A stretch of 64,000 bases of DNA from Pseudomonadota bacterium (GTDB lineage Bacteria > Pseudomonadota > Alphaproteobacteria > Rhizobiales > Beijerinckiaceae): positions 1,862 to 65,861 of the forward strand of contig JAJXYV010000001.1 of assembly GCA_021780435.1 (NCBI GenBank). The letters run 5' to 3'. The notes beneath the pieces are model-generated. The model did no database searches. It was not told the origin of the DNA and saw only the letters and a list, made by a program, of their open reading frames with translations. The position numbers and the translations under genes are program-made. Positions 54,267-64,000 of the stretch are shown piece by piece (the stretch's first letter is position 1; each line of letters starts with the position of its first letter).

Positions 54267-57200
54267 ATGCCTCCTGAAACGTCGCTGCGGCCACCGCAGA
54301 AATCCGCGAACGAACTCCTTCGCGCCAGCGCCGAACTGGAAAAGGGCCGCTCGCTCATCCTGTCGCGCGCGCCGGAGGGCTTTGACGCCTTCGTTGCCGC
54401 CGATCTCGCGCGCGCCCTCGCGAAATCCAGCGAGGGACGCTCCTGCGCTCTGGCCCATGCGGCGCGCGACAGCCAGCGGCTGCGCGCTTTCCGCGAGGCG
54501 CTTATCTTCGCTGCGCCGGACATTGAAATCCTCGAATTCCCCGAATGGGACTGCCAGCCTTACGACCGCGTCTCGCCCAATGCGGCGGTCGCCGCGCAAA
54601 GGATGACGGCGCTGGCGCGCCTTGCCCGGACGCGCTCCTCGCTCGAAAAGCCGCGCATCGTGCTGACGACCGTCGCTGCGCTCTCGCAGCGCGTTCCGCC
54701 GCGGAGGGACATGGCGGCCAGGAGTTTTTCCGCGACGCCGGGCTCGGCGATCGACCTGCATGACCTCGCGGCCTGGCTCGACGCCAACGGCTTTTTGCGC
54801 GCGTCGACCGTGCGAGAAAGCGGCGAATATGCTCTGCGCGGCGGCATTGTCGATCTCTATCCGCCGAGCCTGCCCGGCCCGGTGCGGCTCGACTTTTTCG
54901 GCGACGTGCTGGAGACGATTCGCGCCTTCGACCCCGAGAGCCAGCGGACCACGGGGCAGTTGCGCTCGCTCGATCTCGTGCCGGTGAACGAGGCGCCGAT
55001 CCTCACCGAGACGATCAAGCGCTTCCGACAAGGCTATATCGCGCAGTTCGGCGCCCAGACGCGCGGCGACACGCTTTATGAGGCGGTGAGCGAAGGCCGC
55101 CGTCCGCCGGGACTCGAACATTGGCTGCCGCTGCTCTATCCCGGCCTCGACACTTTGTTCGGCTATATCGACGACGCGCCGCTGCTGCTCGACGCCCAGG
55201 CCGAGGCGGCCGCCCACGAACGCTTCGACCAGATCAAGGATTATTACGAATCCCGCCGCAGCGTCTTCGCGCGCGACCCTGCCAATTGCAATTACAAGCC
55301 CCTGCCGCCAAACGAGCTCTATCTCTCGCCGGATGAATTTGCCGAGGCGCTGAAGAAGACGGCGACGGCGCGCTTCACGCCTTTCGCCGAGCCTGAAGGT
55401 GGCGCGAAGGTCATCGATTGCGGCGGCGTCGCCGGCCGCAATTTCGCCGCCGAACGCAACGATGAGAACGCCAACGTTTTCCAGGCGGCGGTCGATCACA
55501 TCCGCGCCTTGCAGGGTGAGGCGAAAAAGGTTGTGGTCGCCGGCTGGACGGATGGTTCGCGCGAGCGTCTCGCGTCGGTTCTCGCCGAACATGGACTGAA
55601 AAAGCAGGAGATCGTTTCCTCGCTCGGCCACGCTCTGAGCCTGCGCGACGCCCGCGTCGCCTTTGCGGTGATCGGACTCGAGGCAGGCTTCGTCGCCGGC
55701 GATCTGGCGGTGATCGGCGAGCAGGACATTCTCGGGGACCGCCTCGCGCCGCAACGGAAGCGCCGCAGGCGGCCCGAGAATTTCCTTGCAGAGGTCGCCG
55801 CGCTTTCCGCGGGCGACCTTGTCGTCCATGTCGATCACGGCATCGGGCGCTTCGTCGGCCTCAAGCATATCGAGGCGGCGGGCGCGCCGCATGATTGCCT
55901 GGAGTTGCATTACCACGGCGGCGACAAGCTCTTCCTGCCGGTCGAGAATATCGAGCTTCTCTCGCGCTATGGTTCGGAAGAAGCCGAGGTTCCGCTCGAC
56001 CGGCTCGGCCACACCGCTTGGCGCGAACGCAAGGCGCGCCTGAAACTGCGCATCCGCCAGATGGCGCAGGGGCTGATCAAGATCGCCGCCGCTCGCACCC
56101 TGCGCGAGGCGCCGAGGTTGACCCCGCCCGAAGGCCTCTACGAGGAATTCTGCGCCAAATTCCCCTATGACGAGACCGACGACCAGATTGCGGCGATCGA
56201 GGCGACTCTTTCCGACATGACTTCGGGCCGACCGATGGACCGGCTGATCTGCGGCGACGTCGGCTTCGGCAAGACCGAGGTCGCCCTGCGCGCCGCCTTC
56301 GCGGCGGCGATCAACGGCGTTCAGGTCGCGGTGGTCGTGCCGACGACCTTGCTTGCGCGCCAGCACTTCAAGAATTTCTCCGCGCGCTTCGCCGGACTGC
56401 CGGTGCGGATCGCGCAAATGTCGCGCATGGCCAGCGCCGCCGACATGCGCACGGCCCGCTCCGGCCTCGCGGACGGATCCATCGACATCGTCATCGGCAC
56501 TCATGCGGTGCTGGGCAAGACGGTCAATTTCAAAAATCTCGGCCTCGTCGTCATCGACGAGGAGCAGCATTTCGGCGTCGGCCACAAGGAGCGGCTGAAG
56601 GAGCTGCGCGCCGAAGTCCATGTGCTGACGCTCTCCGCCACGCCGATCCCGCGCACCCTGCAACTGGCCCTCACCGGCGTGCGCGAATTGTCGATCATCG
56701 CCACACCGCCGGTCGATCGCCTCGCGGTGCGGACCTTCGTCACGCCCTTCGACGATCTCATCCTGCGCGAGGCGCTGCTGCGCGAGCGGTTTCGCGGCGG
56801 CCAGAGCTTCTTTGTCTGCCCGCGGCTGGAAGACCTCGACGACGCGACGGCCTGGCTACGCCAGAACGTGCCCGAGGCCAAATTCACCATCGCCCACGGG
56901 CAGATGGCGGCGACCGAACTGGAGGAGCGCGTCGGCGCCTTCTACGACGGCAAATATGACGTGCTGGTTTCGACCAATATCGTCGAATCGGGCCTGGACA
57001 TCCCGACCGCCAACACCCTGATCGTCTATCGCGCCGACATGTTCGGCCTTGCGCAGCTCTATCAATTGCGCGGCCGGGTGGGGCGCTCCAAGACCCGCGC
57101 CTATGCCTTCTTCACCACGCCGGTCAACCGCACGATCACGCCGCAGGCGCAGAAGCGGCTGGAAGTGCTGCAATCGCTCGATACGCTTGGCGCCGGCTTC

Positions 57201-57818
57201 CAGCTCGCCAGCCACGATCTCGACCTGCGCGGCGCCGGCAATCTTCTGGGCGACGAGCAGTCCGGCCATATCCGCGAAGTTGGTTACGAGCTGTACCAGC
57301 AGATGCTGAACGAGACGATCGCCGCGCTCAAGGCGGGCGGCGGCGAGGCGGTGGAGGAGACCTGGTCGCCGCTCATCACGCTCGGCACGCCGGTCACGAT
57401 CCCGGAACATTATGTCGAGGACCTCGACCTGCGCCTGCAGCTCTATCGCCGCCTCGCGACGCTCGACGACGAGGCCGAGATCGAAAGCTTCGCCGCCGAA
57501 ATGATCGACCGTTTCGGCCCGATGCCCGACGAGGTGAACCAGCTGATGGTTCTGGTCGGCGTCAAGGCCCTGTGTCGCCACGCCCATGTCGAGAAGGTCG
57601 AGGCCGGGCCGAAGGGGATCATCGTCGGCTTCCGCAACAACAGCTTCGCCAATCCCGCTGGACTGGTGCGCTATATCGCCAAACAGGGCTCAGACGCCAA
57701 GGTCCGCCCGGACATGAAGATCGTCTTCATCGGCGATTTCGAGCGCGCCAAGGACCGCCTCGACGGCGCCAGGAAGATTCTCCGCGATCTGGTGCAGATC
57801 GCGGAAAAGAAGGGGTGA
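54267..57818 (+). CDS. mfd: Transcription-repair coupling factor
   Basis: WDCQPYD..SP, RGGIVD, GDLVVHVDHGIG, CGDVGFGKTEVA, IDEEQHFGV, LYQLRGRVGRS, TRCF C-terminus. Confidence 0.97.
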   Translation: MPPETSLRPPQKSANELLRASAELEKGRSLILSRAPEGFDAFVAADLARALAKSSEGRSCALAHAARDSQRLRAFREALIFAAPDIEILEFPEWDCQPYDRVSPNAAVAAQRMTALARLARTRSSLEKPRIVLTTVAALSQRVPPRRDMAARSFSATPGSAIDLHDLAAWLDANGFLRASTVRESGEYALRGGIVDLYPPSLPGPVRLDFFGDVLETIRAFDPESQRTTGQLRSLDLVPVNEAPILTETIKRFRQGYIAQFGAQTRGDTLYEAVSEGRRPPGLEHWLPLLYPGLDTLFGYIDDAPLLLDAQAEAAAHERFDQIKDYYESRRSVFARDPANCNYKPLPPNELYLSPDEFAEALKKTATARFTPFAEPEGGAKVIDCGGVAGRNFAAERNDENANVFQAAVDHIRALQGEAKKVVVAGWTDGSRERLASVLAEHGLKKQEIVSSLGHALSLRDARVAFAVIGLEAGFVAGDLAVIGEQDILGDRLAPQRKRRRRPENFLAEVAALSAGDLVVHVDHGIGRFVGLKHIEAAGAPHDCLELHYHGGDKLFLPVENIELLSRYGSEEAEVPLDRLGHTAWRERKARLKLRIRQMAQGLIKIAAARTLREAPRLTPPEGLYEEFCAKFPYDETDDQIAAIEATLSDMTSGRPMDRLICGDVGFGKTEVALRAAFAAAINGVQVAVVVPTTLLARQHFKNFSARFAGLPVRIAQMSRMASAADMRTARSGLADGSIDIVIGTHAVLGKTVNFKNLGLVVIDEEQHFGVGHKERLKELRAEVHVLTLSATPIPRTLQLALTGVRELSIIATPPVDRLAVRTFVTPFDDLILREALLRERFRGGQSFFVCPRLEDLDDATAWLRQNVPEAKFTIAHGQMAATELEERVGAFYDGKYDVLVSTNIVESGLDIPTANTLIVYRADMFGLAQLYQLRGRVGRSKTRAYAFFTTPVNRTITPQAQKRLEVLQSLDTLGAGFQLASHDLDLRGAGNLLGDEQSGHIREVGYELYQQMLNETIAALKAGGGEAVEETWSPLITLGTPVTIPEHYVEDLDLRLQLYRRLATLDDEAEIESFAAEMIDRFGPMPDEVNQLMVLVGVKALCRHAHVEKVEAGPKGIIVGFRNNSFANPAGLVRYIAKQGSDAKVRPDMKIVFIGDFERAKDRLDGARKILRDLVQIAEKKG

Positions 57819-58342
57819 GAATCTTTTTCCGCCGTTTTGCAGAAAGTGGAAATGGAAACGGGCGCCGCCGGCGCGAATCGACGCGGTGGGGTTGGATAGC
57901 CGATTGGTTTAATATGAAAAATGGCGCGCTCTCGCCGCCGCGCCTTGGACCACACAGGGTATTTCAACCCAAAGGTTGCAGAGGCCAAAGATGGCCGCTT
58001 ATTCCGACAATTCGGTCCGAATCCGGAGAAAATCGCGAGTCTTTTTCATGTTTTTCGGGGTTTTCTTCCACTTTTCATCACAGATTTTTTCTCGCGCCCC
58101 GTTGCAACCAAAGATTGCGGTTCGGCGGGTAGGGCGTCACGCCTTTGCCGTAAGAGAATCGGAGGCGTGGCCGTCGGCGCCGCGCGATGGAGGCTGGGGC
58201 GCAGTCAGGGCGCCGGTCGATCGCATGGCGGGCGAAAGCGGAAAACGAGATTTTTTTTGATGACCTTGAACAAAACCGCCAATCTGCGCGTTTTCTTATC
58301 ATCCGACGGGGTGCTGGGGCGGCGACGGACGGAAAAGGGATC

Positions 58343-60160
58343 ATGTTTCGTCGAATGTCGAAAATTTGCGCGGTGGCTTTAGCCATCGGCTTCACAACGC
58401 CTCTTCTGCCCAGCGTCACACGTGAGGCCTTCGCCTTCGGCCACTTTGGCGGCGGGGGGCATTTCGGCGGCGGCGGCCACTTTGGCGGCGGCGGCCACTT
58501 TGGTGGCGGCGGCCATTTCGGGGGCTTCCGTGGCGGTTTTGGCGGCGGTCACTTTGGCGGTTTCCGCGGCGGCCACTTCGGGGGCGGCCATTTTGGCGGT
58601 TTCCGTGGCGGCCACTTTGGCGGCGGTCACTTTGGCCACTTTGGCGGCAGACGTTTCGGCGGCGGGCATTTCGCTCGCGGCGGCGCCGGGAGGCATTTCG
58701 CCCATGGCGCCGCTGGCAGACGATTCGCGCATGGGGCCGGGGGTAGCCGATTCGCTCACGGCGCCGCTGGCAGGAATTTCAGTCGCGCCGCCGCCGGCAG
58801 GAATTTCACGCGCGGCGTCGCGGGCAGGAATTTCGGTCGCGGCTTCGCGGGCCGGCAGTTTGGCGCCGGAACGCGGTTCGGCGGCGGGGCGGCCTTCGCA
58901 GGCAACCGCATGGGGCATTTCGCCGCGTTCCAGGGCATTCGCGGATTGGCTCCGCAGGGGTTCAACCGCAATGGCTTCGGCAACATGCAGGGATGGAACC
59001 AGTGGGGTTCCAATAACTGGGGTCTGGGCTGGAACAATTGGGGCTCCGGCTATGGCTATTGGGCCGGGCCGGTATTTTGGCCATTTTTCTATGGCGACGT
59101 CATGACCTACGCCATGTGGCCTTATGGCTATTATGATCCCTTCTTCCTTTATGGCTCGAACTTCCTCCTGTCCTCGATCTTCTGGCCAGGGCCTTATGTC
59201 TGCCCGGTCTATGGTTACTGTCCTGATTACGGCTATAACTATGCTTACGGTCCGTATGATGACGCTTATGGCTACGACGACTATTCAATGTTCGATGTCT
59301 ATGGCGCTCCATATGATGGGCAATACTATACGGCCTACTCCTATGGGCGCCATCGCCACCATCGCCGCCATCATGTCATACATCGTTATGTGAACCCCGC
59401 GCCCGCTCCCGCTCCGGTCAATGTGGCGGCGAGTTGCGGCGGCCTGGCGCCCGGCGTGACCCAATTGCCGATCGACCGAATCAGGACGACGATCGGCGCT
59501 ACCGACGAGCAGATGACGTTGCTGGATCAACTCCAGGCGGCTTCGAGCCAGGCGAATGCGATTTTGCTCGCCTCCTGCCCGGCTTCGGTTCCGCTGACGC
59601 CGGTCGGGCGGCTCGACGCCGTCTCCGGGCGGCTCCTTGCCATGATCCAGGCGATGGACGTCTTGCGCGGGCCGCTGACGCGTTTTTACAACTCGCTCGA
59701 TGACAACCAGAGGCTTCAACTCGCCGCGGTCGCCGGGCGCGGCCGGAAAGGCCGCGCGAATATCGCCGTGAATGAGGCGCCGGCGCGCGATCTTGCGGCG
59801 CTTTGCCAGAAACAGGCGCAAAGCTTCACCCTTTTGCCCGTGCAGCGCATCGACGACGTCGTGAAGCCGACGGGAGAACAACAAACCGCCTTCGATGGGT
59901 TGAAAACCGCCTCGACCGCCGCCGCGACGGGCCTCGGCGCATCCTGCCCATCGGATGTGCCGCAAACGATGGAAGGCCGCCTCGATGCGGTCTCCGCGCG
60001 ACTGCACGCGCTGGAAGACGCCGTGAACACGGTCAGGCCTGCCTTGAAGGCGTTTTACGATTCGCTGAGCGATGAGCAAAAAGCGCGTTTCAACGTGATC
60101 GGTGGCGCAAATATGGCGGCGACGCCGCAAAACCAGGGGGCAAACGGGGCAGGGCGCTAG
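58343..60160 (+). CDS. Exported Gly/His/Phe-repeat protein with C-terminal Spy/CpxP (LTXXQ)-like helical domains
   Basis: Signal peptide ending AFA; low-complexity repeats; two domains ending FYNSLDDNQR and FYDSLSDEQKARF; start moved to ATG 58343. Confidence 0.8.
   Translation: MFRRMSKICAVALAIGFTTPLLPSVTREAFAFGHFGGGGHFGGGGHFGGGGHFGGGGHFGGFRGGFGGGHFGGFRGGHFGGGHFGGFRGGHFGGGHFGHFGGRRFGGGHFARGGAGRHFAHGAAGRRFAHGAGGSRFAHGAAGRNFSRAAAGRNFTRGVAGRNFGRGFAGRQFGAGTRFGGGAAFAGNRMGHFAAFQGIRGLAPQGFNRNGFGNMQGWNQWGSNNWGLGWNNWGSGYGYWAGPVFWPFFYGDVMTYAMWPYGYYDPFFLYGSNFLLSSIFWPGPYVCPVYGYCPDYGYNYAYGPYDDAYGYDDYSMFDVYGAPYDGQYYTAYSYGRHRHHRRHHVIHRYVNPAPAPAPVNVAASCGGLAPGVTQLPIDRIRTTIGATDEQMTLLDQLQAASSQANAILLASCPASVPLTPVGRLDAVSGRLLAMIQAMDVLRGPLTRFYNSLDDNQRLQLAAVAGRGRKGRANIAVNEAPARDLAALCQKQAQSFTLLPVQRIDDVVKPTGEQQTAFDGLKTASTAAATGLGASCPSDVPQTMEGRLDAVSARLHALEDAVNTVRPALKAFYDSLSDEQKARFNVIGGANMAATPQNQGANGAGR
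58436..58672 (+). repeat. Coding tandem repeat, (G)nGHF units
   Basis: 12 GHF tripeptides; synonymous codon variation (cac/cat, ttt/ttc, ggc/ggt/ggg) shows the repeat is kept at protein level. Confidence 0.9.
58688..58876 (+). repeat. Coding 27-nt (9-aa) tandem repeat, G-[RS]-x-F-x-x-[GA]-x-x, 7 copies
   Basis: GRHFAHGAA GRRFAHGAG GSRFAHGAA GRNFSRAAA GRNFTRGVA GRNFGRGFA GRQFGAGTR. Confidence 0.85.
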
Positions 60161-60354
60161 ATAACTTTCGGAAACGGGGCGCCCGTTTCACGCCGGCGGG
60201 ACGATCGGGTTGCGATGAGCGGCTTCGTGTCCGGACGCGTGGCTGTGCGCCACAAAAACTTCGGCGGCATGTTGGAGCCCCCACATGCCGCCGACTTTTC
60301 GATTCCGTCTGACGCTTCTCTTCCGGCGATGCGGCCTTCCGAGGCCAGCCGAAT

Positions 60355-61050
60355 TTATTTCAGCGTGCTGACATAGGCCGCGACCTCGGCAACCTGCTGC
60401 TTGGTCAGATTGTGCGCGATCGGCTTCATCAACGAGGACACATCCGCGTCGCTTGGCTTCAGGCCGCGCTCGTTCTCGAAATTGCTCAGTTTCCGAATGA
60501 CATAATCGTTCAACTGGCCCGCGAGCCGAGGAATCTTGTCGTTGCCCTTGGCGTCGTCGCCATGGCACGTGGCGCAGGGCGGGACATTCTCGCTCGGGAC
60601 TCCGTTTTGGAAAATTTCCTTGCCGGCGGGGACGAGAGCCTGGGGCGCGCCGCCGAGCGGGGCCGGGTTGAGGTCATGGAAGCTCTGCGACAGGTACTGG
60701 ACCATTTCCGGGCTCAGGACGTGGGCGACATTGTTCATGACGGGATTTGTGCGACGCTTTTCGATAAAGGCCTGCAGCTGGTTCTTGATATATTCAGGCT
60801 GCTGTCCCGCGAGACGCGGCATCGGGAAGGCGCCCCGGAACCCTTGCCCCTGCACGCCGTGACAGGTTTTGCAATAGAAGAGCTTAGCCTCCTCCGCCTT
60901 CTTGGAGGGCTCGACCGTCTTCTGCGCCGCCGGTTCAGCCTGTTGCGAAACCGCGCCCTTTTTCTGGTCCTCCGCTCGCGCCGCGACGCTTGCGCCCAGA
61001 ATGGCGACAGCCGCCGCCAGAGCGAAATATTTGCCGCCAATGCTCTTCAT
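60355..61050 (-). CDS. Periplasmic diheme cytochrome c4 (copy A)
   Basis: Signal peptide; CKTCH and CATCH; PRLAGQ after each heme; distal Met in NPVM and SLM. Confidence 0.9.
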   Translation of the reverse strand: MKSIGGKYFALAAAVAILGASVAARAEDQKKGAVSQQAEPAAQKTVEPSKKAEEAKLFYCKTCHGVQGQGFRGAFPMPRLAGQQPEYIKNQLQAFIEKRRTNPVMNNVAHVLSPEMVQYLSQSFHDLNPAPLGGAPQALVPAGKEIFQNGVPSENVPPCATCHGDDAKGNDKIPRLAGQLNDYVIRKLSNFENERGLKPSDADVSSLMKPIAHNLTKQQVAEVAAYVSTLK

Positions 61051-61470
61051 GATTCCACACCTTCCCTTTTTCGCTAACCCTCGCGCCGCGGCGCGCCGAG
61101 CGCATTGCCGCTTCCGCGACTCCGCTAACTCTATCCTTCCGAGACCGGCAATGATCTAGAACAATTCATGCCTCGGCGGCTCTTTTATTTGCATATGTTT
61201 CCTGATCGCCGTGCGGGCCACCGTGATCGCAAAGCCATCCTCGCCCGAACTGCACCACTGATTCATAGTACAGTTCCAACATATAGAGAAATCATAATGT
61301 AAGAATATAAACCCGAAAAAAGTTCGGAATCGCCCGCGCGGCCGCTGGATTGCGCCCATTCCTGACCGTTGACGCGATCCATCAGCCCGCCTGAAGGATC
61401 TTCCCTTTTTCTTCGAACCGCGGGCCAACGCGTGCATTTCTGAGGATGTTCGCGCAATTTCCCAAGAGAA

Positions 61471-61521
61471 CTTATGGCCGCGCTGACCATAAGGCGACAT
61501 TTTTGCAACATGCTATATAAT
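61471..61521 (+). promoter_or_regulatory. Inverted repeat next to a TATAAT element, candidate activator-dependent promoter
   Basis: CTTATGG-N9-CCATAAG (61471-61493); TATAAT at 61516-61521 with no canonical -35. Confidence 0.35.
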
Positions 61522-61715
61522 TGTAGCGAGCGAATACGGTTGATTGAGCCAAGACAATTGCCACGGGGAACGGAAGGGATAAACATTCGGTCGAATTCCA
61601 GTCCGGCCCAGGTCGAATCAGGCTCGCGCAACAAGCAAGTAAAACTTGTCTAAAAGCACGAGACCGGGCAGTAGAAATCTTGGACGGGGAATGTAAAATT
61701 GAGGGGTCGATAGCC

Positions 61716-62354
61716 ATGATAGCTATTCATGGGCGAAACGCATTATATTCGATTGCGCTCGCGTCGGCGGTCGTGGCGGCTGGTTTTTCCGGCTCCGCGG
61801 TCGCGGGGGCGGGCGGCGGCGTCCAGGACAAGATTGAATATTGCCAGGTCTGCCATGGTGAGACGGGCCGGGGCTTTTATGGCTATTACGCCATCCCGCG
61901 CCTCGCGGGGCAGCAGCCCGGTTATATCGAGAACCAGTTGCGCGACTATGCGAGCGGCCTGCGTCACAACTCGGTCATGGGCGGCGTCGCGCGTGGCGTG
62001 AGCCCGGCGACGTATGGCGCGATTGCTGCGCATTTCCACGCCATGAACCCGGCCCCGCTCGGCGGCGGCGGCGGCAATGTCGCGCTTGGCCGCGAGATTT
62101 TCGCGAATGGCCTTCCCGAATCGAATGTTCCCGCCTGCTCGGCCTGCCATGGGCCGGACGCCCATGGCACGGGGCAGATCCCGCGGCTCGCTGGCCAGTT
62201 GCCGTCCTATCTCGTCAAGACCTTGAGCAACTGGTCGCCGGAGCGCGGCCATTCCTCCGCGGGCGGCCTGTCCGCGCTCATGGTCCCGACCACACATAAT
62301 CTGACCGCGGCGCAGATCGCCGCTGTCGCCGCCTATGTTGGCGGTCTGCGTTAA
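61716..62354 (+). CDS. Periplasmic diheme cytochrome c4 (copy B)
   Basis: Signal peptide; CQVCH and CSACH; IPRLAGQ twice; Met in NSVM and ALM; start moved to ATG 61716. Confidence 0.9.
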   Translation: MIAIHGRNALYSIALASAVVAAGFSGSAVAGAGGGVQDKIEYCQVCHGETGRGFYGYYAIPRLAGQQPGYIENQLRDYASGLRHNSVMGGVARGVSPATYGAIAAHFHAMNPAPLGGGGGNVALGREIFANGLPESNVPACSACHGPDAHGTGQIPRLAGQLPSYLVKTLSNWSPERGHSSAGGLSALMVPTTHNLTAAQIAAVAAYVGGLR

Positions 62355-62415
62355 TGCGTTTCGCTCCGATCGGCCGGCGGGCATGCCCCGCGCCCCACAG
62401 ATGAGAACAGAGGCC

Positions 62416-63075
62416 ATGAAACATATCGGCTTGACGGTCGCGTCACTGGTGATTTCCCTTTGGGCGACAGGTCCGCTCTGCGCCCAACCTGACGCGTCTT
62501 ACCCCCTCGCGCTTCTTCCCCTGCCTGCCGCGAATGGGCCGCCCGTGAAAAACTGCACTTATTGTCACGGGGTGTCCGCGCAGGGACTCGCCACGGCGCC
62601 GCGTCTCGCGGGGCAAAGGGCGGCCTATATCGAGAAGGAGCTCAGCGCCTTCCGTGGTCACGAGCGCGACAATCCGCTGTCCCAGCTCTACATGTGGAAC
62701 GTGGCCGCAAACCTGAAACCCGAGACGGGCCGGGAGTTGGCGGTCTATTTTTCGCAGCTGCCGCCGCGCGCTGCGGCTGACGGCAACCGGGGCCTGTTCG
62801 ACGAGGGCCGCGCTCTCTATCAGCAGGGCGTCCCCAACGCCAACATCGTGACCTGCGTCGTTTGCCATGGGCCGAACGCCGAAGGCGTCCGCGACATTCC
62901 GCGCCTGGGCGGCCTCTCCTACCTCTATCTGAAACGCCGGATGGAAGAATGGAACAAGGGCTACCATCCGACGGCGCGGCCGATGCCGCAGGTCGCGCGG
63001 GAATTGTCGCCGGCCGAGATCGATGCGCTCGCCTCCTATCTGAGTTTTCTCGACGAGGAAACGGCGAGCAAATAG
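62416..63075 (+). CDS. Periplasmic diheme cytochrome c4 (copy C)
   Basis: Signal peptide; CTYCH and CVVCH; APRLAGQ and IPRLGG; Met in LYMW and RPMP; GAGG RBS before ATG 62416. Confidence 0.88.
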   Translation: MKHIGLTVASLVISLWATGPLCAQPDASYPLALLPLPAANGPPVKNCTYCHGVSAQGLATAPRLAGQRAAYIEKELSAFRGHERDNPLSQLYMWNVAANLKPETGRELAVYFSQLPPRAAADGNRGLFDEGRALYQQGVPNANIVTCVVCHGPNAEGVRDIPRLGGLSYLYLKRRMEEWNKGYHPTARPMPQVARELSPAEIDALASYLSFLDEETASK

Positions 63076-63174
63076 CGCTTTCGCCGTGAGCGTTATCCAT
63101 TTGGGCAAGGGTCAAGAACAGTCCGCGTCGGCGCTGAACCAGGCCATTAGCGGGAATTGAGGAGGGCCAAAAGA

Positions 63175-64000
63175 ATGGCCGGGACGAACGAATTATTCAA
63201 TGCAATGCACGCCGGGAATAAAATGCCCCGGCCATCGCGCATCGGCGCCGCGGCGGTCGTGGGCTTGGCCGCGTTCATGGGCGCGGGCGAACAGGCTTCC
63301 GCCTTGCCGAGCTTCGCGCGCCAGACCGGCCAGACCTGCTCGACCTGTCACACCGCCTTCCCGCAGCTCACGCCCTATGGCCGCCGCTTCAAGCTCGGCG
63401 GCTATACCGCGGGCGGCGGCATCGACACGCAACTGCCGCCTGTTTCCTTCATGCTGCAGTCGCAGTTCACCAATATCGGCAGAAGCCTCAACGCGCCGCT
63501 CGGCTCCAGCTCGGCCTATGCGCCCCCGCAGGCTCCGGGACTGGGCGGCTACAACGACACCAACAATTGGACCGACTTTTCGTCGCAGGTCAGCATTTTC
63601 TACGGAGGCAAGATCTGGGGCAATCTCGGCGCCTTCATCCAGGCGACCTATGCCCAGGATTACGGCGAGGCGTTCAACTGGGACAACAGCGACGTTCGCT
63701 ATGCCGACACGCTGCATATCGGCGGCTTCGATGTGCTCTGGGGTCTGGACTTCAACAACAACCCGACGGTCCAGGATCCCTGGAACACAACGCCGGCCTG
63801 GGGCTTCCCCTTCATTTCGTCGCCCTTCGCGCCCGGTCCCGCAGCCGCGACCATGCTCGAAGGCGCGGATTGGGGTCCCGGTCAGGTGGTCAGCGCCGGC
63901 GCCTATGCCTTCATCAACGACATGCTCTATCTTGAATTCTCGGCATATGGCGCGACATCGAAATCGTTCCAATGGGCCATTACGGGCGGACCTCCCTCCA
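63175..64000 (+). CDS. cyc2: Cyc2-like outer-membrane monoheme cytochrome c-porin fusion (3'-truncated by the window)
   Basis: Hand-translated, open to the window end; RBS GAGGAGG 63159-63165; signal ending QASA; LPSFARQTGQTCSTCHTAFPQLTPYGRRFKLGGY; later QVSIFYGGKI, WDNSDVRYA, NNNPTVQDPWNTTPAW. Confidence 0.8.
   Translation, partial: MAGTNELFNAMHAGNKMPRPSRIGAAAVVGLAAFMGAGEQASALPSFARQTGQTCSTCHTAFPQLTPYGRRFKLGGYTAGGGIDTQLPPVSFMLQSQFTNIGRSLNAPLGSSSAYAPPQAPGLGGYNDTNNWTDFSSQVSIFYGGKIWGNLGAFIQATYAQDYGEAFNWDNSDVRYADTLHIGGFDVLWGLDFNNNPTVQDPWNTTPAWGFPFISSPFAPGPAAATMLEGADWGPGQVVSAGAYAFINDMLYLEFSAYGATSKSFQWAITGGPPS

Follow-up and report, generated by a model that had tools for sequence, protein, structure and literature searches.

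The last part of a 64,000-nucleotide (nt) stretch of alphaproteobacterial DNA from a Rhodoblastus-like bacterium of soil or peat (positions 1,862 to 65,861 of contig JAJXYV010000001.1, assembly GCA_021780435.1, family Beijerinckiaceae; hereafter the window) carries a gene for a fused monohaem cytochrome and porin together with three genes for exported dihaem cytochromes c4. We consider it very probable that this locus encodes a conduit formed by a Cyc2-family protein and c4 cytochromes, and the best explanation of the locus as a whole, which we hold with moderate confidence, is a Cyc2-type electron-uptake module. That the physiological role of the conduit is Fe(II) oxidation is close to an even call. 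The gene content was taken from the open reading frame (ORF) listing of window positions 56000-64000, and the features considered below are the following (protein lengths in amino acids, aa).

60355-61050, minus strand: c4A, an exported dihaem cytochrome c4 of 231 aa with haem motifs CKTCH and CATCH, divergent from the other three genes
61151-61164, no strand assigned: candidate FNR/FixK-type box ATGATCTAGAACAA, ~100 nt upstream of the c4A start codon
61494-61509, no strand assigned: imperfect inverted repeat GCGAC-N6-GCAAC, ~210 nt upstream of c4B, a possible operator
61716-62354, plus strand: c4B, an exported dihaem cytochrome c4 of 212 aa with haem motifs CQVCH and CSACH, first gene of a putative c4B-c4C-cyc2-ccmI operon
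62416-63075, plus strand: c4C, an exported dihaem cytochrome c4 of 219 aa with haem motifs CTYCH and CVVCH, the paralogue that adjoins cyc2 and is the most Cyc1-like
63175-64000, plus strand: cyc2-like gene, codons 1-275 of 502, a monohaem cytochrome fused to a predicted 16-strand outer-membrane porin, cut by the window end

The long ORF of c4B begins at 61680, and its likely start is the ATG at 61716, which has the ribosome-binding site GAGGGG in front of it; the long ORF of c4C begins at 62335, with a likely ATG start at 62416 and GAGG in front. The cyc2-like ORF is open at its 3' end, contains one CSTCH, and likely starts at the ATG at 63175, which is preceded by GAGGAGGG. A preliminary description of this DNA had reported a monohaem cytochrome-porin gene co-directional with two of the c4 genes, which the ORF listing bears out; the end coordinate given there is only the window edge, and the gene runs 227 codons further. 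An exact-protein look-up with the full-length haem-porin P0001 (see below) matched no contig, and the downstream DNA came from public contigs found in the same way with c4C and c4A. Over 11.6 kb, these contigs match the window at 99.85-99.87% identity (99.85% for L025-L027), and independent gene calls on such near-identical contigs place the same four starts (231, 212, 219, and 502 aa).

The cytochrome-porin has the features of the Cyc2 family

A protein search with the cyc2-like ORF identified a full-length database protein (P0001), which matches the query at 100% identity wherever the two overlap, plus 3,776 related proteins. P0001 is counted from an internal Met and has 486 aa, such that the 502-aa form corresponds to P0001 with 16 additional N-terminal residues; the 502-aa product is identical on contigs L025-L027. 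Keffer et al. 2021 (PMC8406198) describe Cyc2 proteins as having a signal peptide, one CxxCH, an AxPxFAR[Q/K][T/Y] motif upstream of it, and a PxL four residues downstream, along with an architecture of at least 365 aa and a 16-strand porin. Judging from its sequence and a predicted model, the haem-porin has every one of these published sequence and architecture features that was tested. Its signal peptide, recognized by eye, has a basic n-region, a hydrophobic core, and an ASA cleavage motif (MAGTNELFNAMHAGNKMPRPSRIGAAAVVGLAAFMGAGEQASA|LPSF). The N-terminal stretch of P0001 reads ...EQASALPSFARQTGQTCSTCHTAFPQLTPYGRRFKLGGY..., and the upstream motif is present as ALPSFARQT (the cyc2-like protein carries ALPSFARQTGQTCSTCHTAFPQL), followed by GQT and then by the only CxxCH, a CSTCH at residues 39-43 of P0001, after which TAF leads into PQL as the PxL element. 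The haem-c segment lies ~11 residues from the mature N-terminus of the 502-aa protein. Homologues with an intact N-terminus contain one CxxCH each, and the complete Cyc2 motif is found in 94/120 nearest homologues, with the remainder differing conservatively.

The length of 486 or 502 aa is likewise in the Cyc2 range, and an AlphaFold2 model built from a 100-homologue alignment (pLDDT 84.8, pTM 0.85) predicts a short helical haem segment followed by exactly 16 long strands of 9-18 residues. When this model was compared with the PDB using Foldseek, the best matches were 16-18-strand outer-membrane porins (VhChiP, OmpT, OmpF, and AlgE) at a probability of 1.0, and the C-terminus of P0001 (...AYAWFMW) ends in an aromatic residue, which is usual in outer-membrane barrels. 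Pfam, NCBIfam, and PDB sequence searches of P0001 gave no match, and none of the 120 nearest homologues listed has a Pfam porin or Cyc2 domain on record. The Cyc2-type assignment of the preliminary description is supported by the signal peptide, the one CxxCH, both motifs, the length, and the AlphaFold2 barrel, and with the downstream sequence retrieved, the full-length protein has its 16-strand barrel in a confident predicted model.

Searching plasmids by tblastn returned full-length homologues of 32-43% identity in Methylocystis, Acidiphilium, Ralstonia, Caballeronia, and Paraburkholderia. Ralstonia is named among the heavily sampled genera of the Cyc2 homologue set of Keffer et al. (PMC8406198), and a published similarity network joins Acidiphilium, Burkholderiales, and Hyphomicrobiales homologues to the A. 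ferrooxidans Cyc2 (PMC10654088). As a side observation, two of the plasmid matches, H2 (CP084173.1, labelled Acidithiobacillus ferrooxidans) and H3 (Acidiphilium cryptum pACRY03), have equal identity, E-value, and bit score, and the H2 plasmid may therefore be from Acidiphilium or shared between co-cultured acidophiles.

Three c4 cytochromes belong to separate orthologue groups

All three c4 proteins have both Cytochrom_C and Cytochrome_CBB3 matches in Pfam, with Cytochrom_C E-values from 3e-16 (c4A) to 1.5e-12 (c4B). PDB entries 1H1O, 1ETP, and 6Q2U served as the cytochrome c4 reference structures, and the top PDB match for each protein is 1H1O, which we take to be the A. ferrooxidans c4 cytochrome Cyc41/Cyc1 (E = 1.4e-24 for c4A, 2.7e-25 for c4B, and 1.4e-27 for c4C). 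Because the Pfam matches of 3e-16 to 1.5e-12 are accompanied by full-length matches of 1e-24 to 1e-27 to solved c4 structures, the c4 identity of these proteins is beyond chance. Each of them is exported and contains two class-I domains, each having a CxxCH and a distal Met ~40-55 residues downstream; the c4A signal peptide, judged by eye, is MKSIGGKYFALAAAVAILGASVAARA. In an alignment of 1H1O with 45 c4 homologues from the window and related loci, neither the two CxxCH motifs nor the first distal Met vary, and at least 90% of the sequences keep the second Met. The alignment of c4C with 1H1O (residues 72-238) includes both haem sites, both Met ligands, and a common YMW Met loop. The three exported dihaem c4 genes with distal Met first noticed in this DNA are thus borne out by the ORFs, Pfam, the full-length PDB c4 matches, and the conserved Met residues. 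Matches of the c4 proteins to NCBIfam PdsA and ccoP were far under the curated cut-offs and were not used.

A maximum-likelihood tree separates the c4 proteins into three orthologue groups, in which c4A and c4B are sisters (100/98 support) and c4C is separate (100/99). The c4A group spans 13 loci, and every one of the three groups holds both Rhodoblastaceae and Roseiarcaceae sequences. Therefore, the triplication is older than the split of these two families, and all three copies have been kept.

The gene set is conserved, and the cyc2-c4 pairing recurs across phyla

A scan of species-representative genomes yielded 19 loci. The c4A gene is divergent from c4B-c4C-cyc2 in L001-L010, L013, and Candidatus Rhodoblastus alkanivorans (L020/21), all four genes are present in another order in L012, and the upstream flanks of the gene set vary by lineage. 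Conservation of the four-gene set thus extends over Rhodoblastaceae and Roseiarcaceae genomes and to a Methylocystis plasmid. The latter belongs to the peat-bog isolate Methylocystis sp. MJC1 (L022; NZ_CP107559.1, 238461-251993) and encodes a Cyc2-like protein of 43% identity along with the same three c4 types, two of them c4A/B-like at 48-56% identity and one c4C-like at 52%. This locus differs from that of the window in having the order cyc2-c4-c4-c4 on one strand, in its position on a plasmid beside IS66, and in a nearby Crp/Fnr regulator gene; its genes are annotated only as a hypothetical protein and three c-type cytochromes. Simpler versions occur in an alphaproteobacterium (L014) and a member of the Myxococcaceae (L019), both of which have cyc2 followed by one c4, and on a Caballeronia plasmid, which has the order HiPIP-cyc2-c4. 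Our main argument that the haem-porin and the c4 cytochromes work together is that this pairing with periplasmic electron carriers recurs across phyla and gene orders. The outer-membrane-to-periplasm conduit originally proposed for this DNA is therefore supported by Cyc2-c4 linkage across families and phyla, in addition to the Cyc2 features of the haem-porin and the position of A. ferrooxidans Cyc1/Cyc41 as the nearest match of the c4 proteins among solved structures.

We regard it as quite improbable that these genes share only a neighbourhood, with the c4 proteins acting as ordinary respiratory or photosynthetic carriers (e.g. cbb3 donors at low oxygen) and the haem-porin doing something unrelated, for example haem-dependent gating or sensing. 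In other proteobacteria, it is well established that cytochromes c4 pass electrons to cbb3 oxidases, weak ccoP-like matches are found here, the FNR-type box precedes c4A and not cyc2, and the adjoining ccmI is a housekeeping gene, all of which would suit such an arrangement. However, the adjacency of Cyc2 and c4 recurs in Alphaproteobacteria, Betaproteobacteria, and Myxococcota, including loci with a changed gene order and loci on mobile DNA, and is therefore hard to explain without functional coupling; furthermore, the locus mirrors the cyc2-cyc1 pair of A. ferrooxidans. Even less credible, and in our view highly improbable, is that the locus is an acquired cassette which is in decay or already inactive and has no present function. 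All four frames are intact and have good ribosome-binding sites, their third-position GC of 0.75-0.80 is host-like and similar to that of the neighbouring genes, the orthologue groups are conserved over 50-85% protein identity, and contigs from several samples carry the locus at 99.85% identity. This argues against decay, even though the Methylocystis copy is on a plasmid beside an IS66 element and the distribution of Cyc2 in Bradyrhizobium is patchy and has been put down to horizontal transfer (PMC5566968).

Several related loci have further electron-transfer genes beside the cluster. In eight of them (L009:6208-6522 on the minus strand, L006:6385-6678 on the plus strand, L002, L004, L010, L011, L012, and L013), a HiPIP-like gene encodes a protein of ~100 aa with a twin-arginine signal and the pattern C-x2-C-x8-C-x11-C-x-C-W; this protein has no Pfam HiPIP match, and its gene is directly upstream of cyc2 in L011. 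In Candidatus Rhodoblastus alkanivorans, a cytochrome b561-family membrane protein (L020:6440-6982; PF01292, E = 2.5e-29) is encoded just past c4A and could be a candidate inner-membrane acceptor in that organism; the window has no counterpart of this gene at the matching position. A third case is the Acidobacteriaceae bin palsa_142 (L016:2924-17170), in which a Cyc2-like gene of 35% identity is followed by genes for a cupredoxin-domain protein, a Rieske protein, and cytochrome b, and is flanked by multihaem cytochromes with 6, 11, and 8 CxxCH motifs. These electron-transfer surroundings are far richer than those in the window.

A putative operon that ends with ccmI

The c4C stop and the cyc2 start are 99 nt apart on the same strand, and a cyc2 gene beside a c4/cyc1 gene is likewise a trait of the A. 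ferrooxidans rus operon. On the near-identical contigs, the gene after cyc2 is ccmI (TIGR03142, 79.8 bits versus a cut-off of 29.3), which follows after a gap of 43 nt. Because no terminator-like site was found in the c4B-c4C (61 nt), c4C-cyc2 (99 nt), and cyc2-ccmI (43 nt) gaps, a c4B-c4C-cyc2-ccmI transcript is plausible, and these four genes probably form a single transcription unit. Among the related loci, ccmI also follows cyc2 in L001, L002, L004, L006, L007, and L020/21, and it was not found behind cyc2 in the Roseiarcus-type loci examined. Past ccmI, the near-identical contigs carry convergently transcribed shikimate dehydrogenase, FMN reductase, and patatin genes.

The preliminary description had placed the rest of the operon beyond the window. 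This was correct for the remainder of cyc2 and for ccmI, but the near-identical contigs have no oxidase, cupredoxin, or further cytochrome gene there. Searches for Copper-bind and COX families found none in the 10 kb on either side of the locus on contigs L025-L030, and tblastn with the Caballeronia HiPIP and the HiPIP-like protein of the relatives gave no match in the window or in L025-L027. A rus-type operon was considered and rejected, as cupredoxin and oxidase genes were not found nearby.

Candidate regulatory sites between c4A and c4B

The intergenic region between c4A and c4B is 665 bp long, has a lower GC content, and is mostly unconserved among relatives, as seen from an alignment of nine orthologous regions. 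Two islands of conservation are of interest. The first is the box ATGATCTAGAACAA, which agrees with the TTGAT-N4-ATCAA consensus at 8/10 positions. Its position is conserved in nine loci (including L001-L004, L006, L007, L020, and L005) within a region that is otherwise variable, and it was kept as a candidate because of this conserved position rather than because of window statistics. Perfect FNR/FixK boxes, which have a background rate of 1e-5 per position, are present in L005 (TTGATCTATATCAA) and, within the 134 bp upstream of cyc2, in the distant L014 (TTGATCTAGATCAA). This FNR/FixK-like box upstream of c4A suggests low-oxygen control, a possibility for which we also counted the Crp/Fnr regulator gene beside the Methylocystis copy.

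The second island is an inverted repeat that reads GCGAC-N6-GTCAC in the relatives (aligned position in L001-L008) and GCGAC-N6-GCAAC at 61494-61509 of the window, where it overlaps a promoter-like GCGACA-16-TATAAT. Counted by hand, the repeat of the relatives agrees with the PrrA pattern YSCGGC(5)GWCRMA (PMC5506826) at 10/12 positions, and RegA binds the A. ferrooxidans rus promoter (PMC5506826). Speculatively, then, the repeat, which loosely resembles PrrA/RegR patterns, is a candidate operator. Further conserved blocks lie ~45 and ~130 nt downstream of it (CAATTGCCAC and GAAGCAAAGCCCGTCCA), and an Rfam search of positions 57500-64000 found no RNA family match.

Proposed electron uptake and its physiological role

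In the electron-uptake module that we propose, the haem segment of Cyc2, which would be located in the outer membrane, takes electrons singly from dissolved Fe2+, as it does in characterized Cyc2 proteins, and the three periplasmic dihaem c4 cytochromes would carry them over the periplasm to sinks in the inner membrane. Within this scheme, c4C would be the Cyc1-like carrier beside cyc2, and the other two carriers, c4A and c4B, are sister paralogues of one another. The sinks would be encoded elsewhere in the genome, most plausibly as a high-affinity cbb3-type oxidase, and in phototrophic relatives as the reaction centre. With c4A behind an FNR/FixK-like box, its expression may be induced at low oxygen, where Fe(II) persists. 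A more far-reaching version, in which Cyc2 and the three c4 cytochromes are a working low-oxygen-induced Fe(II) uptake system in Rhodoblastus-type purple bacteria, Roseiarcus, and Methylocystis, with the paralogues splitting electrons between a cbb3 oxidase, the reaction centre, and reverse bc1 flow, strikes us as doubtful.

A number of results weigh against this proposal or parts of it. The near-identical contigs contain no oxidase, cupredoxin, HiPIP, or further cytochrome gene within 10 kb, and no invariant Met or second His is evident as a distal haem ligand in the family alignment of the haem-porin. With regard to low-oxygen control, an 8/10 match to the FNR pattern is at chance level within the window, and the FNR-like box is absent from the Roseiarcus-type loci. 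Lastly, Cyc2 homologues are widespread among bacteria for which no iron oxidation is known (He et al. 2017, PMC5566968), and our literature search found no paper linking Cyc2 to Rhodoblastus or Roseiarcus and nothing useful on peat Alphaproteobacteria.

The prevalence of Cyc2 in such bacteria also bears upon another explanation, in which the conduit is the same but has a different job, namely Fe(II) detoxification at low pH, oxidation of the reduced humics or quinones of peat, or outward disposal of electrons to Fe(III) or humics for redox balance. All biochemically tested Cyc2 proteins oxidise Fe(II), namely those of A. ferrooxidans, Leptospirillum (Cyt572), Mariprofundus PV-1, and Ghiorsea, and a narrow monohaem porin has been argued to fit dissolved Fe2+ and not bulky organics (PMC8406198). 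On the other hand, many carriers of Cyc2 are organotrophs that are not known as iron oxidisers, and He et al. 2017 raise extracellular electron transfer besides Fe(II) oxidation (PMC5566968). The family is also abundant in bins from peat, bog, and acid soil (Roseiarcus from SPRUCE, the Acidobacteriaceae palsa bin, and the alpine peat-bog Methylocystis), and the near-identical contigs have no linked carbon-fixation or oxidase genes. On balance, we consider a different job for the conduit unlikely.

Comparison with known systems and implications

The arrangement of the locus has already been published for Bradyrhizobium, in a Cyc2 cluster with three periplasmic cytochromes c (He et al. 2017), and is therefore not new. 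According to that report (PMC5566968), which summarises Percak-Dennett et al. 2017, a Bradyrhizobium sp. from a pyrite-oxidising enrichment has Cyc2 clustered with three periplasmic cytochromes c that include homologues of Cyc1 and CycA1, and an outer-to-inner-membrane relay was proposed. Compared by that description, the present locus is from the same order (Hyphomicrobiales) and likewise combines Cyc2 with three periplasmic cytochromes c, whereas the Bradyrhizobium cluster as described there has a HiPIP and the present locus has no HiPIP or HiPIP-like gene within 10 kb. The details unreported so far are the divergent c4A with its FNR-like box, the inclusion of ccmI in the putative operon, and the ancient division of c4 into three paralogues.

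The A. ferrooxidans rus operon (cyc2-cyc1-cup-coxBACD-rus) is similar in that its Cyc2 has 485 aa, versus 486/502 aa here, with the same type of N-terminal haem motif, and in that a dihaem c4 gene is its neighbour, with all three c4 proteins of the window best matching 1H1O. However, the rus operon also encodes rusticyanin, Cup, and an aa3 oxidase (coxBACD), none of which is found in the present cluster or within 10 kb, and it has one c4 gene, whereas the window has three (one of them divergent) with ccmI downstream. The hosts differ as well, as the present one is of a probable organotroph/phototroph lineage and A. ferrooxidans is an extreme acidophilic lithotroph. The neutrophilic Cluster 1 proteins Cyc2PV-1 of Mariprofundus ferrooxydans and Ghiorsea bivora Cyc2, whose Fe(II) oxidase activity was shown in vitro or in E. 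coli, share the fused cytochrome-porin and the defining motif with the present protein. The nearest named relatives of the latter, however, are homologues from Hyphomicrobiales, Acidiphilium, Ralstonia, and Caballeronia, groups that the PMC10654088 network connects with the A. ferrooxidans type; the known Cyc2 clusters are only 17-30% identical to each other.

Rhodoblastaceae and Roseiarcaceae, two families common in peat and bog soils that are acidic and rich in iron, stably carry the complete and well-conserved Cyc2-c4 set. To our knowledge, the known purple photoferrotrophs use PioAB or FoxE. If the more far-reaching version of the proposal holds, it would be the first case of Cyc2-dependent iron oxidation, possibly photoferrotrophy, in alphaproteobacterial phototrophs, and common peatland Hyphomicrobiales would be unrecognised iron oxidisers. 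Since Rhodoblastus acidophilus is cultivable and has an orthologue that is 83% identical, in an intact orthologous cluster, the function is directly testable. Should Fe(II) be oxidised, these organotrophic or phototrophic Alphaproteobacteria would take part in the iron cycle of peatlands, and Cyc2 would join the known routes of photoferrotrophy in purple bacteria. No other genetic marker of microbial iron oxidation is used as widely as Cyc2, and if Fe(II) is not oxidised, the locus would be a helpful counter-example for surveys that rely on marker genes, such as FeGenie.

A repeat protein encoded beside c4A

Directly on the other side of c4A, window positions 58187-60160 (plus strand) encode an exported protein of 605-657 aa with ~150 residues of Gly/His/Phe/Arg repeats. 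The 657-aa form was considered as a part of the module and rejected as an improbable one, since no related locus has a counterpart beside the cluster. Following the repeats, this protein has two LTXXQ (Spy/CpxP-like) domains (Pfam PF07813, E = 2.3e-28).

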